Source: a virus (Duplodnaviria > Heunggongvirae > Uroviricota > Caudoviricetes). From it: a stretch of 35,102 bases of DNA. The stretch spans positions 1 through 35,102 of the IMG/VR virus record IMGVR_UViG_2563366856_000002; one strand, written 5' to 3'. Made by a program: the position numbers and the translations under genes. Below the pieces are notes generated by a model. It saw only the letters and a program-made list of their open reading frames with translations. It was not told the DNA's origin and ran no database searches. Positions 4,178 through 14,400 of this stretch are shown here, piece by piece (position 1 is the first letter of the stretch; every line of letters starts with the position of its first letter).

Positions 4178-4319
4178 AAAAAGGACGGTACCAGCCGGAA
4201 GCAAGGGTACAAGCTGGTACCTCCAAGACTACACACAGCAATGAAACTATTGCCTGTCTTTTCACCACTTCAGGCTCGGTGGTATGCTGGAGTTCTCACA
4301 CAGCCAGCAAGGAAACCTA

Positions 4320-4661
4320 ATGAACCAGTTTTATGTTCACGTTCGTCTGTTTGAAGCAACAGCCGAACAGACCAAAAAATTTGAAGAATTAATGCTTAAC
4401 TTTCTGTACCAGAAAACAATCAAAGAGTCTGACGATAGCTGCTGCAGACTGATTCCAGAGGGATATATCCTCAAAAGCACAATGAACTGCCAACAAATCC
4501 TTGATCAAACTTTTTCCATTGCTAACAGTGCTGGTGTTGACGCAAATATATTTGTCTGCAAATTTGAACAAAGCGCATGCTTACTTCCGTCTGCTTCCTT
4601 AGTTGGCAACGATTTTGTTCATCACGATCTTACGCCTAAGCCCATCAAGCTCGATTCTTAA
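4320..4661 (+). CDS. hypothetical protein (convergent with early-left operon)
   Basis: 113 aa from ATG preceded by AAGGA RBS; upstream TGgTATGCT extended -10-like element; 3' end overlaps 3' end of the 102-aa gene on the other strand. Confidence 0.4.
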   Translation: MNQFYVHVRLFEATAEQTKKFEELMLNFLYQKTIKESDDSCCRLIPEGYILKSTMNCQQILDQTFSIANSAGVDANIFVCKFEQSACLLPSASLVGNDFVHHDLTPKPIKLDS

Positions 4662-4907
4662 TGCCTTAACCATTGTGTCGTGATAAACACGGCTCACCCT
4701 CTCTCCATTGCATGGCAGGGGGGTGATCGTGTTAGCCATGAAATTCATGAACTTGGTTCGATCAGGGTCTTGCGCCCCGCAAGTATTTAATGCCTGTTTT
4801 GCTAACAAAATACGGGCCTCAGTGCCTGCATTTGGCTCTATCTGCTGCAAACGTTTAGAGTCTTCCAGCAACAATGCGATCACATGCTTCAAATTCTGCT
4901 CATTCAT
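4599..4907 (-). CDS. hypothetical early-left protein (first gene downstream of putative pL)
   Basis: 102 aa; ATG preceded by GGAGAG RBS; no recognisable motif. Confidence 0.55.
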   Translation of the reverse strand: MNEQNLKHVIALLLEDSKRLQQIEPNAGTEARILLAKQALNTCGAQDPDRTKFMNFMANTITPLPCNGERVSRVYHDTMVKALRIELDGLRRKIVMNKIVAN

Positions 4908-5010
4908 CTATTCTCTCCACTGAAATCATCCGCTAACGAATCATCCCGGTCTTCGTACGTACCAGGCGGGCTACTTCGTGGGCGTCCTGCCTGTTCGTTG
5001 TTTTAACGCC

Positions 5011-5060
5011 TTTAAGTTGTAATTTAGTTGTGGTTTTGAATGTTGTCAACAACTTTATGT
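5011..5060. promoter_or_regulatory. putative left operator/promoter region (oL/pL-like)
   Basis: Three GTTGT and one ACAAC repeats including palindrome GTTGTCAACAAC (5042-5053); 12-mer ACAACTTTATGT (5049-5060) identical to the one in the cI-cro intergenic region (6703-6714). Confidence 0.45.
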
Positions 5061-5112
5061 GGTTTGAACGAGTGGCCAAGGAGTGCAAGGATTATCAAAA
5101 AAAGGAGGTTGT

Positions 5113-5661
5113 ATGGAAGACGCGCTTTACGCTTTTAATTACACACAGAACCGGGACAAGTTATTTGCTAACTTGATTAGCATCATTGATGGAATCATTG
5201 CAGATGGAGTTGTCCGTGAAGAGGAGGTTCTTTACTTAGATACATGGTTACTTGAAGCAAAGCAGATTATCAATAATGGAGTTATAAAAAGTCTATCTGC
5301 ACGGGTGTCGGATATTCTTGCGGATGGAATAATCACATCAGAAGAACGTGATGACCTTAAAAATAGCCTTCTCCAAATACAGAGGGAAATTCTTGATATC
5401 CCTGAAATTGATTTTTACTCCAAGGATGTAGATGTCCATTTACTTAATGGACTATGTAAAGGATTAATTGCTGATCGGAACTTAACTCAAGAAGAAATAA
5501 GATATCTTAATTGGTGGCTTGAGCAAAATGGAGCTTTGAAGAACAACTACCCAGGAAAAAAACTTTATGCACTTGTAAAGGAAATTCTTAAAGATGGTGT
5601 TATTACTGAAGATGAGAGTTTAACTCTACATAAGGCATTATGTAGACTTCACAGGATGTGA
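5113..5661 (+). CDS. TerB-like tandem-repeat protein (four ADG-x-[IV]T-x-EE helical repeats)
   Basis: 182 aa from ATG with AGGAGG RBS; four ~40-aa repeats: IIADGVVREEEVLYL / ILADGIITSEERDDL / LIADRNLTQEEIRYL / ILKDGVITEDESLTL, resembling the TerB/DjlA-N motif. Confidence 0.6.
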   Translation: MEDALYAFNYTQNRDKLFANLISIIDGIIADGVVREEEVLYLDTWLLEAKQIINNGVIKSLSARVSDILADGIITSEERDDLKNSLLQIQREILDIPEIDFYSKDVDVHLLNGLCKGLIADRNLTQEEIRYLNWWLEQNGALKNNYPGKKLYALVKEILKDGVITEDESLTLHKALCRLHRM

Positions 5662-5662
5662 C

Positions 5663-6004
5663 TTGGAAAGTGGGGTGGTGGATGGTTTGGCGACCAGGCT
5701 GCCTATTGATGTAGAGGCTTCGATAGAGTTAGAGGGTAAAACCTATTGTCTTACAGGCACTTTTGTTGCAGGAAAGAGAGCCGTAGTTGAAAATTTGATT
5801 AAAAATGCTGGTGGGAACATCAGTAGTGGAATTACTCAAAAGTTGGATTTTTTAGTAATTGGGACGCTTTCCTCCCGTGATTGGAAATTCTCTAGTCACG
5901 GAAGGAAGATCGAAAAGGCTATATCTTATAGAGATGATAATGGTGCAAAACTTAAAATTATTTCTGAAGAAATGCTTTTCGATGCATTACCAAGTTCGCG
6001 ATGA
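5663..6004 (+). CDS. BRCT-domain protein
   Basis: 113 aa; GKTYCLTGTF...R...LIKNAGGNISSGITQKLDFLVIG...KIEKA...KIISEEMLFDAL matches the LigA-type BRCT pattern (GKT.vLTG...G..v..sVskktd.lV.G...gsKl.KA); TTG start 1 nt after upstream stop with AGGA RBS. Confidence 0.65.
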   Translation: MESGVVDGLATRLPIDVEASIELEGKTYCLTGTFVAGKRAVVENLIKNAGGNISSGITQKLDFLVIGTLSSRDWKFSSHGRKIEKAISYRDDNGAKLKIISEEMLFDALPSSR

Positions 6005-6673
6005 CCAGAATACCCTACCTATAACATGAATTCTGGCTCGTCTATCTTCAAAGGTGAGTATTTCATCTGGGTACTCATCTTTGTTGAAGCTTCTAAGAAT
6101 CAAGCCACCGTCAGGTAAGTTGATAAGTATTTTAACCCTTAGCAATACACCATCTCGTACGGCATAAAGATCGCCATCACGAATAGGAACGGTTTGAGAA
6201 ATATCAACGGCAACAAGATCTCCATTATTGAGAACCGGTAATAAACTGTTCCCCCATATTTTTACGATCTTGGCATTAGATGCACATACGCCAGATTTTC
6301 TCAAATCTGCTCTTCTTAACGGAAACCAGTCAATAGCTGATTCAACTATTTCAGCCAGACATCCGTTACCTGCCGATAACTCGACATCTAAAACAGGAAT
6401 GTTTACGAAAATATCGGGGTCTAATGCGGTGCTTTCTGCTTCTTTTACAACAAGATCAGGTATGGATGCGTTGTCTTCAATACCAAGTTGTAACCACTTT
6501 TGTGATACACCTAAAACTTTTGCAATTTCTTTAATTTTGCGCGGTTGTAGAGTTTCGCCATTCTCTATTTTGGCTACAGATTGTTGTGAAAGTCCAATTT
6601 TTTCAGCTAGTTGAGCTTGGCTCATGCCAGCTTTCTCTCTACCTATCTTTAATCGTTCTGCCAGTGTTTTCAC
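5987..6673 (-). CDS. cI: CI-like prophage repressor (HTH_XRE N-domain plus S24 LexA-like autopeptidase)
   Basis: N-terminal HTH (MSQAQLAEKIGLSQQSVAKIENG), Ala-Gly cleavage site (ELSAGNG), Ser (GNSL) and Lys (RVK) of S24 catalytic dyad. Confidence 0.9.
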   Translation of the reverse strand: MKTLAERLKIGREKAGMSQAQLAEKIGLSQQSVAKIENGETLQPRKIKEIAKVLGVSQKWLQLGIEDNASIPDLVVKEAESTALDPDIFVNIPVLDVELSAGNGCLAEIVESAIDWFPLRRADLRKSGVCASNAKIVKIWGNSLLPVLNNGDLVAVDISQTVPIRDGDLYAVRDGVLLRVKILINLPDGGLILRSFNKDEYPDEILTFEDRRARIHVIGRVFWSSRTW

Positions 6674-6808
6674 AACATATCCCTCTCTTTTTTGATGAGG
6701 TTACAACTTTATGTTTTAGCTTTCCAACACCTAAAAGTTGTGATAAAAGTTGTTAATGTTGTATTCTTGCAACTCGTAACAACTTAACTACCAAAAAAGG
6801 AGAAAGCT
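6674..6808. promoter_or_regulatory. divergent cI/cro operator-promoter region (oR-like)
   Basis: Repeated 8-mers ACAACTTT (6703-6710) and AAAGTTGT (6734-6741, 6746-6753; in the 6733-6756 block) plus ACAACTT (6778-6784), located between divergent repressor and cro-like genes. Confidence 0.6.
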
Positions 6809-7057
6809 ATGACACCTGAGCAATTAGCCTTATCGGAGGCAATCGCTCTGGCTGGTGGTCAATCAGAATTGGCTCGGAAGCTCACAGCCAGCAGCGGTCA
6901 TTTAGTAAAGCAACAACATGTCTGGAACTGGTTGAACAGAGAAAAGCGTCCCCCTGCAAAGCTCTCGATATTCATTGAAAAGACCACTGGCATATCAAAA
7001 GAAAAATTACGTCCAGATATTTTTCAAAAGATTAAAGATTCATCAGATGAAAAGTAA
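6809..7057 (+). CDS. cro: Cro-like small DNA-binding regulator
   Basis: 82 aa, divergent from cI, HTH-like segment GGQSELARKLTASSGHLVKQ, AGGAG RBS. Confidence 0.7.
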   Translation: MTPEQLALSEAIALAGGQSELARKLTASSGHLVKQQHVWNWLNREKRPPAKLSIFIEKTTGISKEKLRPDIFQKIKDSSDEK

Positions 7058-7079
7058 CCACAGTTTTAAGGAGATAGCC

Positions 7080-7637
7080 GTGGGTAAGCATCACTGGAAA
7101 GTAGAAAAACAGCCTAAGTGGTACGTGAAAGCTGTCAGAAAAACTATCGCAGCGTTGCCGGGGGGTTACGCTGAAGCAGCTGACTGGCTGGATGTAACAG
7201 AGAACGCATTATTTAACCGCCTTCGTGCCGATGGCGATCAAATTTTCCCGCTGGGATGGGCGATGATTTTACAACGTGCTGGTGGCACTCACTTCATTGC
7301 TGACGCTGTGGCGCAGTCTGCAAATGGCGTCTTTGTGTCTCTTCCTGACGTCGAGGATGTGGATAACGCCGATATTAACCAGCGCCTGCTGGAAGTCATT
7401 GAACAGATTGGCAGTTATTCCAAACAGATTCGTTCGGCAATCGAAGACGGTGTGGTGGAACCGCATGAGAAGACAGCAATTAACGACGAGCTGTATCTCT
7501 CAATTTCGAAGCTGCAGGAGCATGCAGCACTTGTCTACAAAATTTTTTGCATTTCAGAAAGTAATGACGCCCGCGAGTGTGCAGCTCCGGGCGTCGTGGC
7601 GTCGATTGCTTCTGGTTGTGGAGAAACTAACGCATGA
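7080..7637 (+). CDS. CII-like phage regulatory protein (CP76-type family)
   Basis: GTG start with AAGGAG RBS (in-frame ATG alternative at 7044); position after cro; sequence resembles phage regulatory CII family as recalled. Confidence 0.55.
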
Positions 7638-12988: not shown

Positions 12989-13873
12989 TTATATTGGGCG
13001 CTTTGAATTCGATTTAAAGCGTCTTCCACTTATTCCAGAAACCCAAATGTCTTCCTCAAGAAAGTCAAGAAGGGCTTTTATTTCTTTTTTTGATGAAGGC
13101 ATGACAATTTTCTCAACACCGCCAACTATTATGGTTTGTAAGGGGAAATTAACTTTAGCAGCTTCGGATTTAAACTTTGACATATTTTGGGGTGTTAGCA
13201 TCCCAGTCTGATTTATTAGTGTTACTTTATTTCTTATCACTGTATCTGCAACGGATTTTAGATCAAAACCTTGGGGAGTAGAAAATACACTAAGTTGACT
13301 AAATGCATTAAGTTCTTGGTCAGTAGCAGCAGAAAAATAGGACGACATGTCAAAAATGCTTCTTAGATTAAAGAAACTCTTAAATCGTATTGTATCATTG
13401 ATAATTATTGCAACTAGTTTATCATCAACATTAAAACCGATGCTATTAGCTTTACTAAAGGTAGTTTTGCTTGCAAAAAGCTTTCCAAAGAATGATTTTG
13501 AGGTATCTAAGATTTGTTTTTTGTTGAAAGTTTGTAGTGCAATAATATTGGGGTTTGCTGGCGCGTCAACACCAACAAATAATGCTTTAATATAACCAAT
13601 ATCAATTTGGCTAGGATCCCAGATAGGCACGGCGGTAGGCCTATTGACTGCGTCAATCAGGCGTGCAGAATCAGTAAAGTTTTGTATTTCAAAACACTCA
13701 CTATGTTTTGGTGTATAACCGGCATAGAATGGTATCATATTGTTATGATGACTTTCAAAATATTGACGCTGTTGTTGGAAAATGGCCGTAACAGAAGTAC
13801 TTGCTGTTGCATCAAGTTCGACTCTAACAATTCTCGTTGCAATTGTATTATCTATTACTGCAAAAAGTGCCAT
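12989..13873 (-). CDS. hypothetical 294-aa protein, second gene of an AT-rich two-gene operon (possible KwaB-like)
   Basis: AT-rich; opposite strand to all flanking phage genes; 5-nt gap to upstream membrane-protein gene. Confidence 0.6.
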   Translation of the reverse strand: MALFAVIDNTIATRIVRVELDATASTSVTAIFQQQRQYFESHHNNMIPFYAGYTPKHSECFEIQNFTDSARLIDAVNRPTAVPIWDPSQIDIGYIKALFVGVDAPANPNIIALQTFNKKQILDTSKSFFGKLFASKTTFSKANSIGFNVDDKLVAIIINDTIRFKSFFNLRSIFDMSSYFSAATDQELNAFSQLSVFSTPQGFDLKSVADTVIRNKVTLINQTGMLTPQNMSKFKSEAAKVNFPLQTIIVGGVEKIVMPSSKKEIKALLDFLEEDIWVSGISGRRFKSNSKRPI

Positions 13874-13878
13874 GGTTA

Positions 13879-14400
13879 TTATCCTTTAACATGTAGAAAT
13901 GTGTAGTCTGTTAATTGAATAACTGTAAATTTGATATCTTTAATATCAGTAATAACTGATTTAGAAATCAATACAAAACCTACGCCGGTGTCATCTTCAG
14001 CTTCGTAAAATTTATAACCGATAAGTGACAATACTGGGTTAAAGTTATAGTTCTCGGAAAAGCTGATGTAAAATAACAATGATAAATAAAAGAATAACGC
14101 ATATGCTTTATTTTCAGCAATAGAATCTGTTCCTAGGAGAGGGAATAAATAGCTTAAGAAATAATTAGTTACTTCTTTGTTAGCGGGAGAAACTGAACTA
14201 ATATTTTTTGTCAGAGGTTCAAGTTGTTTCTCAGCATATTGAATCAGGCCTATTGCTAATAACCAACTTGCTATGCCAACGCATAAGCTATATTGCATCA
14301 GCCAAACCGTATCTTTTACATATCCAATAAAAAATAGAGTTGCGCAAACAGGTGCAATTGAGCTGGCTGTTAATAATAAGCGTGCTAATTTGTTCATCAT
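13879..14400 (-). CDS. integral membrane protein (about 4 TM helices), first gene of the two-gene operon (possible KwaA-like)
   Basis: Hydrophobic segments LARLLLTASSIAPVCATLFFIGYV, VWLMQYSLCVGIASWLLAIGLI, VTNYFLSYLFPLLG, AYALFFYLSLLFYISF. Confidence 0.6.
   Translation of the reverse strand: MMNKLARLLLTASSIAPVCATLFFIGYVKDTVWLMQYSLCVGIASWLLAIGLIQYAEKQLEPLTKNISSVSPANKEVTNYFLSYLFPLLGTDSIAENKAYALFFYLSLLFYISFSENYNFNPVLSLIGYKFYEAEDDTGVGFVLISKSVITDIKDIKFTVIQLTDYTFLHVKG

Follow-up and report, generated by a model that had tools for sequence, protein, structure and literature searches.

Does the segment at positions 5113-6004 of the viral record IMGVR_UViG_2563366856_000002 (Caudoviricetes) carry a pair of cooperating genes or something else, and what could it do for a prophage? 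The stretch of DNA that we analysed (the window, 35,102 nucleotides) carries this segment on the + strand between a left operator/promoter region (oL/pL) and the 3' end of a cI-type repressor gene, and the first-pass annotation had read it as an operon that pairs a TerB-like repeat protein with a BRCT-domain protein. We found that it is, essentially beyond doubt, a single gene broken by a frameshift. The intact form of this gene (the BRCT gene) encodes a protein that is predicted to consist of two helical units and a BRCT domain, and we propose that it is a sensor of DNA ends or nicks that is expressed in the lysogen and serves exclusion or defence; for this statement as a whole, the frameshifted single gene and the function together, we see about even chances.

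One gene split by an inserted nucleotide

Direct reading confirmed the outline of the locus. The first open reading frame (ORF1, 5113-5661, + strand) starts with an ATG at 5113 behind a ribosome-binding site (AAGGAGG, 5102-5108) and ends with a TGA at 5659-5661, and the second (ORF2, 5663-6004, + strand) starts with a TTG at 5663 and lies in a different reading frame. The cI-type repressor gene (5987-6673, encoding HTH_3 and Peptidase_S24 domains) is on the opposite strand, convergent with both, and overlaps ORF2 by 18 nucleotides. The TGA, the TTG, the strands and the overlap were as the first-pass annotation had described them.

The reading as two paired genes did not survive comparison with relatives. 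Both halves matched one protein family, PHROG 3989 (296 positions), with ORF1 covering positions 2-179 (E = 8.7e-74) and ORF2 positions 186-295 (E = 1.6e-45), and the segment as a whole (5113-6004) is orthologous to the gene of a 296-residue 'BRCT domain-containing protein' of E. coli (WP_000389078.1, P0001 in our analysis). The same DNA was found at 99.2-99.5% identity in 47 of 5,426 complete E. coli genomes, and in all 30 hits listed RefSeq annotates a single coding sequence of 891 nucleotides under that name, in a matched stretch that is one base shorter than our query. The pairwise alignment traced the length difference to a single T inserted at position 5641 of the window (GCATTA[T]GTAGAC), which shifts the frame at codon 177 and thereby brings up the premature TGA at 5659-5661, so that ORF1 encodes native residues 1-176 followed by CRLHRM. 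The TTG that had been taken for the start of a second gene is native codon Leu184 (5663-5665), a by-product of the frameshift and not a conserved start. The frameshift cuts the linker between the two halves (5642-5728, native sequence VDFTGCDLESGVVDGLATRLPID), which is near-invariant among close orthologues, and removes the residues VDFTGCD, a part that is nearly invariant in 22 orthologues; the linker core G..G..T.LP is also retained in short forms of the family. Among 93 related loci, 89 have one open reading frame of 292-297 codons, and two conserved separate frames were not found. That 5113-6004 is one gene with a frameshift is to our mind as good as certain from these comparisons, and the copy in the window is most likely an inactive pseudogene.

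Could the two fragments nevertheless work together, with ORF2 re-initiated at TTG 5663 by translational coupling and the two products assembling non-covalently? Some re-initiation at this TTG is conceivable, as the TGA and the TTG are one nucleotide apart and an AGGA lies 6 nucleotides upstream of the latter. The allele has also persisted, with 65 contigs that carry it and two distinct prophage left arms in which it sits, and the compact model of the intact protein (described below) suggests that its domains share an interface. On the other hand, TTG is a weak start, the near-invariant linker sequence VDFTGCDL is destroyed, no other split was seen among the loci and representatives examined, and the nonsense and deletion decay in sister lineages (also below) fits loss rather than innovation. 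We consider a functional split form very unlikely.

A programmed +1 frameshift at ATG-TGA-C (5656-5662), by which a full-length protein six residues off the native sequence would be restored, was rejected. After a shift at this stop, translation would be back in the native frame precisely from Asp183 on, and the UGA-C context with AGGA just upstream looks superficially like that of prfB. However, the AUG in the P-site cannot re-pair in the +1 frame, there is no slippery codon, and the site arose as a side effect of a recent single-nucleotide insertion, which the other loci examined lack, so that nothing has selected it. We regard this possibility as close to nil.

Circulation, decay and selection

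The broken allele is real and circulates in E. coli, and intact alleles are far commoner. The exact ORF1 product was found on 65 public contigs and the exact ORF2 product on 52 (for instance as A31K_03003 and A31K_03004 of E. coli KTE165); for intact alleles of 296 residues the contigs numbered more than 1,000 and 396. The frameshifted allele was present in two different prophage left arms (loci L012 and L013). A sequencing error as the source of the extra T was rejected: the contigs come from independent sources, and the T lies outside a homopolymer run.

Other forms of decay were also found. Of the 93 related loci, 89 were intact, two had the same frameshift as the window (both retrieved by exact match) and two, on viral contigs (L041 and L042), had a nonsense mutation at codon 242. 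The cI family occurs in 71 E. coli genomes, 24 of which have a sibling cI type (80-90% nucleotide identity), and a megablast search detected the BRCT gene in none of these 24. The sole member of the 24 that was inspected (L111, E. coli BS15R-A, 2700-2990) contains a deletion remnant in which the region of the start codon is fused to approximately the last 47 codons; the upstream operator region is kept, and cI is 93% identical at the protein level. Decay of the gene in E. coli took at least three independent routes (frameshift, nonsense and deletion); it is dispensable to the prophage and has been lost repeatedly.

Where the gene is intact it is under purifying selection. The ratio of non-synonymous to synonymous substitution rates (dN/dS) was 0.055 for L001 versus L041, the sole pair with unsaturated dS, a value that mostly mirrors selection before the recent disruption of the L041 allele. 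In the other pairs dN ranged from 0.14 to 0.47 and dS was saturated.

Domain architecture of the intact protein

An AlphaFold2 model of the intact protein, made from 87 diverse homologues, was compact and of high confidence (predicted local distance difference test, pLDDT, 94.6; predicted template modelling score, pTM, 0.91); it superseded an earlier, poor model made from 22 close sequences (pLDDT 67.5). According to the model the protein consists of two tandem helical units, a linker and a C-terminal BRCT domain.

The BRCT domain (native residues 206-290; 5729-5983, + strand) had been recognised as a standalone-type domain in ORF2, and profile searches agreed (Pfam BRCT, 27.4 bits versus a gathering cut-off of 21.3, E = 3.9e-6). 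The intact protein scored 28.7 bits against the same family (PF00533), which was also matched by 74 of 87 and by 20 of 25 relatives, and the predicted structure has the alpha/beta BRCT fold. The best matches in the PDB, by sequence as well as by fold, were RFC1 (profile E = 1.8e-8) and LigA, and phage ligase subunit B was also close. At four positions, T214, G215, R222 and R255, conservation reaches at least 90%; they align with T415, G416, R423 and K458 of RFC1, which we take to be the residues that bind the 5'-phosphate of DNA. The domain thus appears to belong to the RFC1/LigA class, which binds DNA 5'-phosphates. The domain has the Thr-Gly, Arg and Lys/Arg pocket positions in common with those of RFC1 (p140) and LigA. 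In these proteins the BRCT domain is an accessory to an enzyme or clamp loader, whereas in the intact product of the window gene no other nucleic-acid module is recognisable beside it; there it carries an additional SRDWKFSSHGRKIEKA insertion and, in the model, is packed against the helical units.

Each helical unit is modelled as four helices with a pair of acidic DG..E hairpin motifs. Unit A (residues ~10-94; 5140-5394, + strand) contains motifs 1 (5197-5226) and 2 (5317-5346), and unit B (residues ~104-176; 5422-5640, + strand; extending to about residue 180 in the model), a duplicate of unit A, contains motifs 3 (5467-5496) and 4 (5587-5616); residues 27-91 and 117-181 are 40% identical. 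The first-pass annotation had listed four repeats with a fixed pattern. Four copies are indeed present (residues 29-38, 69-78, 119-128 and 159-168, spaced by 40, 50 and 40 residues), and the exact pattern occurs in repeat 2 only. Residues D31, E38, D71 and E78 are invariant in close relatives, and in the 87 homologues (26-82% identity) the best-conserved residues of the N-terminal part are the pairs D31/E38, D121/E128 and D161/E168. The signature DG-x-[IVL]-x3-E recalls the latter half of an EF-hand loop, and EF-hand profiles were matched by a few relatives; judged by these sequences the helical units possibly bind metal, which would be a reasonable reading of the acidic pairs. Short relatives of ~205 residues contain unit B and the BRCT domain only.

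To call the N-terminal half TerB-like, as had been done, was an overstatement. The Pfam TerB profile (PF05099) had no match in ORF1 at E <= 1, nor in the intact protein at E <= 0.01, so that the profile search proposed for both products found BRCT in ORF2 and no TerB in ORF1. Eight of 112 relatives matched TerB weakly (7 of 87 and 1 of 25, best E = 9.5e-5), and one matched DUF533. Alignment with the TerB structure 2JXU by hhalign gave a probability of 5% (E = 0.0077) and paired the DG..E motifs with each other, and fold searches returned generic four-helix bundles for the helical units, with no TerB structure among the top matches. The features in common (an all-helical fold and paired acidic DG-x5-6-E motifs) argue weakly for homology with TerB. 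The locus is also unlike Shango, in which a TerB protein is combined with an ATPase and a helicase: no ATPase or helicase adjoins the BRCT gene, the neighbours of which are cI and early-left phage genes, and PADLOC reported no Shango match.

We also observed that the neighbouring YmfL/CP76 (CII-like) regulator (6975-7637, + strand) has a similar DG-x-V-x3-E helix-hairpin, and that the region of motif 2 in the product of the BRCT gene (residues 58-93) weakly cross-matches profiles of the YmfL/CII type (NF041471, 1.6e-4; phrog_6499, 4.4e-6; phrog_101, 0.013).

Position in the immunity module

The slot between oL/pL and the 3' end of cI is the one that rexAB occupies in lambda, and this part of the first-pass annotation stood: a pL-like promoter and operator-like repeats were found at 5014-5062. 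The AT-richness that it had noted was also confirmed (G+C 0.36-0.40 over 5000-6800 versus 0.45-0.55 in the flanks); it is the whole immunity module, cI included, that is AT-rich. The same slot harbours BstA as cargo in other prophages (PMC8585504). The BRCT gene has in common with rexAB and bstA its position, its AT-rich composition and its dispensability for the prophage, and it differs from them in that there is no sequence similarity and in that it encodes a single, predicted soluble protein, on the strand opposite to cI and with a candidate promoter of its own. Co-transcription with cI and a membrane channel, as in RexAB, were not found here, and neither the helical units nor the BRCT domain matched a membrane-protein family.

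The association with cI is conserved among the relatives. The BRCT gene is convergent with a cI homologue in 88 of the 93 loci, 86 of which passed an automatic gap test (3' ends that abut or overlap by a few nucleotides); the other two are L012 and L013, which carry the window allele and in which the frameshift shortened the BRCT match and gave a computed gap of 350 nucleotides. The two proteins also diverge together, with identities of 100/100, 91/93, 82/84, 76/80 and 68/72% for the BRCT protein and cI, respectively, as is to be expected for anything that lies between oL and cI, and the flanking early-left genes vary among the loci.

Outside this lambdoid arrangement the gene was found in several other settings, for instance downstream of cI and on the same strand in an Aeromonas prophage, in a slot shared with HipA_2 and DUF3037 genes in an Oceanimonas prophage, and in Pectobacterium 186-like prophages in the order repressor, Flk_N protein, BRCT-family gene, Abi_alpha and integrase; in Kosakonia and Pantoea it lies between a repressor-like gene and the integrase, without Abi_alpha. 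A megablast search of a phage collection gave no match, and a tblastn search identified a homologue in Vibrio phage K139. This gene, orf2 (NP_536630), which phages Kappa, VPUSM 8 and 919TP also carry, is homologous over 95% of the length (32.6% identity, E = 7e-39), belongs to the same length class and lies in the lysogenic PL operon cI-orf2-glo-int, beside the repressor and the exclusion gene glo; the promoter, the transcription start and the exclusion function of glo are annotated in the record. It runs in the direction of cI and belongs to a P2-like phage, unlike the window gene, which is convergent with cI in a lambdoid prophage.

A candidate promoter abutting the left operator

The oL/pL region (5014-5062) contains a pL-like promoter on the - strand (-35 TTGACA, 5049-5044; 17-nucleotide spacer; -10 TAAATT, 5026-5021) that is flanked by AAGTTGT/ACAACTT repeats. 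Four half-sites of the same kind are present in the oR region (6703-6785), and 6 of the 9 copies of the heptamer AAGTTGT/ACAACTT in the window are located at oL/pL or in the cI-cro intergenic region. A longer element, the 12-mer ACAACTTTATGT, occurs at 5049-5060 and again at 6703-6714, between cI and cro.

A simple promoter scan found no + strand promoter upstream of the BRCT gene. The candidate that we put forward (5064-5092, + strand; -35 TTGAAC, 5064-5069; 17-nucleotide variable spacer; extended -10 TGcAAGGAT, 5084-5092) is based on conservation across species, i.e. on a phylogenetic footprint. In 76 of 80 prophage loci TG[CT]AAGGAT follows ACAACTTTATGT at exactly 35 nucleotides, with a spacer that varies in sequence, and three upstream blocks (TTTAAG[GT]TGTAAT[TC]TAGTTGT, TGTCAACAACTTTATGTGGTTTGA and TG[CT]AAGGAT) are kept in species where the proteins are only 68-76% identical and the sequence between the blocks varies. 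The conserved blocks would fit a promoter, with a -35 element TTGAAC/TTGATT, that abuts an operator overlapping the -35 element of pL. In lambda, CI bound at oR2 helps pRM. By analogy we hypothesise that repressor bound at oL could shut pL and at the same time help a weak promoter of the BRCT gene.

Two further observations were made on this region. The operator/promoter blocks (window 5014-5112; L014-L093) are identical or nearly so although the cI proteins are only 58-80% identical, and the leader of the BRCT gene, CAAAAAAAGGAGG, resembles that of cro, CCAAAAAAGGAG, at 6791-6802.

The position of the gene also allows for a role in the lysis-lysogeny switch, in which the intact protein would sense DNA damage or DNA ends and tune induction or establishment; transcription from its promoter into cI could, in addition, interfere with cI expression. 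The location inside the immunity module, the abutting of promoter and oL, the convergence with cI and the weak cross-match of the motif region with regulators of the CII/YmfL type are all in line with such a role, as is a 2026 preprint in which cI and BRCT-domain genes are described as regulatory cassettes of Roseobacter prophages and sensing of DNA damage is speculated upon (PMC13345283). Nevertheless, cI and the operators have stayed intact through repeated losses of the gene, so the switch can do without it; phage types differ in how the gene is oriented relative to the repressor; and relatives also occur outside prophages, in islands with restriction-modification, Abi, helicase-nuclease and ion-channel genes. 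A function in the switch is in our view improbable.

Similarly, the protein could be an early lytic accessory that acts on the DNA of the phage itself, for example by shielding or marking its cos ends and nicks or by bringing in a host ligase or clamp, and that is derepressed together with pL upon induction. LigA, RFC1 and phage ligase subunit B use this class of BRCT domain, some relatives carry a helix-hairpin-helix (HhH) domain and a second BRCT domain as in the C-terminus of LigA, and the candidate promoter and pL stand back to back beside a shared operator. Such a role is hard to reconcile with the location of the gene in a lysogenic repressor-integrase unit in K139, in 186-like prophages and in the Aeromonas prophage, with its dispensability in many prophages and with the short forms in non-phage islands, and we consider it slightly less probable still than a role in the switch.

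A large family with varied neighbours

Close relatives of the intact protein (68-100% identity, 292-300 residues) occur across the Enterobacterales. An exhaustive search of cluster representatives (50% identity) returned 2,854 clusters when the threshold was E <= 0.001 and 1,590 when it was E <= 1e-10. We observed several architectures: the ~295-residue form, the ~205-residue form with one helical unit and a BRCT domain, fusions with an N-terminal DEDDh exonuclease, forms with the HhH and second BRCT domain mentioned above, and a fusion of 2,042 residues in which the helical-BRCT module is found at the C-terminus of a protein with DUF4011, a superfamily 1 (SF1) helicase, an MTES_1575 nuclease and DUF3320.

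The DEDDh fusions correspond to PDC-S48 (E ~ 1e-30), an untested 'phage defence candidate' of PADLOC (bioRxiv 10.1101/2024.01.29.577857). The intact protein shares a helical unit and the BRCT domain with PDC-S48 (positions 238-377 of 411 of the model, E = 1.3e-7) and not its complete architecture: PDC-S48 has an N-terminal DEDDh exonuclease, whereas the protein of the window family has no enzyme and a second helical unit instead.

Several neighbours of family members are potential effectors. Short forms adjoin DUF4011 helicase-nucleases, and an Ion_trans_2 channel (~235 residues) adjoins short as well as long forms in at least seven unrelated contigs (e.g. L098, 4219-5615; L113, 5001-6623; L177, L179, L181 and L185), in two of which the channel gene lies between the DUF4011 helicase-nuclease and the BRCT gene. 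The pairing with a channel, which is confined to distant relatives, recalls the sensor-plus-channel logic of RexA and RexB. In Sulfurimonas phage SNW-1 (L110, 2929-3986) a short form, annotated as 'DNA polymerase', is followed at 3 nucleotides by a thermonuclease gene, and the pair is divergent from a CII-like regulator. HsdR and AbiEi/AbiEii were found near some relatives, and in small integrative elements and Pseudomonas phages short forms have an integrase gene close by.

A proposed role in exclusion or defence

In the explanation that we favour, the intact gene would be accessory cargo of the prophage immunity module and would be expressed in the lysogen, from its own promoter abutting the oL operator or, in other phages, by co-transcription of the homologue with the repressor. 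Through its BRCT pocket the protein would detect 5'-phosphorylated ends or nicks in foreign DNA that enters the cell or replicates there, and the helical units would serve as regulatory or partner-binding modules, possibly metal-binding. Rival phages or other mobile DNA would in this way be excluded or fought off. Relatives appear to have coupled the helical-BRCT module to nucleases, to a helicase-nuclease or to an ion channel; as the enterobacterial form comes without an enzyme, it might block end processing or recruit a host factor. We favour a sensor of conflict because the gene is dispensable and AT-rich, because it is found in lysogenic units beside exclusion and Abi genes, and because its module is reused with nucleases and channels. 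We ranked this reading above a role in the switch, followed by metabolism of the phage's own DNA, a functional split form and a programmed +1 frameshift, in that order. In line with the first-pass annotation, we know of no described system of this kind.

Several points weigh against this proposal. CI at oL might repress the BRCT gene instead of helping it, which would speak against expression in the lysogen. A promoter/terminator scan found no terminator-like site on the - strand within the gene, so that cI transcripts would run antisense through it. The tight linkage with cI could merely reflect the position inside the immunity module, and in the enterobacterial prophages there is no conserved adjoining partner and no enzymatic or membrane domain. 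Effector neighbours were found in a minority of 80 metagenome loci, many of which are short. Finally, a literature search turned up no experiments on members of the family; for K139 orf2, annotated since 1999, no function is recorded, and PDC-S48 is itself only an untested candidate.

A more far-reaching version is that the family represents a new, enzyme-free type of prophage immunity factor, in which the RFC1-type BRCT domain would detect 5'-phosphorylated ends or nicks of invading DNA and the acidic units would relay the signal, in stand-alone proteins to a host partner and in fused or adjoining arrangements to nucleases, a helicase-nuclease or a channel. In lambdoid prophages CI at oL would repress pL and activate the gene at once, in the manner of pRM. 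We consider this combination tentative and, taken in full, rather unlikely.

Other features of the window

Two convergent open reading frames precede the oL/pL region (4284-4661, + strand, and 4599-4907, - strand; 63-nucleotide overlap); they match phrog_8894 (2.4e-41) and phrog_12693 (7.9e-68), both of unknown function, and the segment 4284-4907 differs from the matching segment of the closest E. coli relative (L001). In the late region (12989-14400, - strand) a reading frame of 294 codons matches Pfam KwaB (Kiwa protein B; E = 1.5e-7, above the gathering score) and is directly preceded by one of 173 codons without a Pfam match, and the two may be Kiwa cargo of the prophage. Outside the integrase end (1-1684, + strand) three overlapping reading frames encode a DuOB domain, DUF488 (N3a subclade) and an mSLOG-DUF4326 fusion. 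This cluster looks like a conflict cassette for nucleotide or DNA modification. The E. coli prophages most closely related to the window do not match it; their matches begin at ~2000.

Implications

The annotation of the window can be corrected: 5113-6004 contains one pseudogene and no new two-gene system. The gene behind it belongs to a large, uncharacterised family that turns up repeatedly in lysogeny modules, in lambdoid and P2/186-like phages as well as in those of the Vibrio K139 type. With its conserved arrangement of promoter and operator, the locus would be a second example of a repressor that controls cargo from the left operator. Should phage exclusion through the reading of DNA ends prove to be what the intact protein does, the BRCT domain would be added to the sensors of bacterial immunity; as a single E. 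coli gene of which natural null alleles exist, the system would be easy to test.

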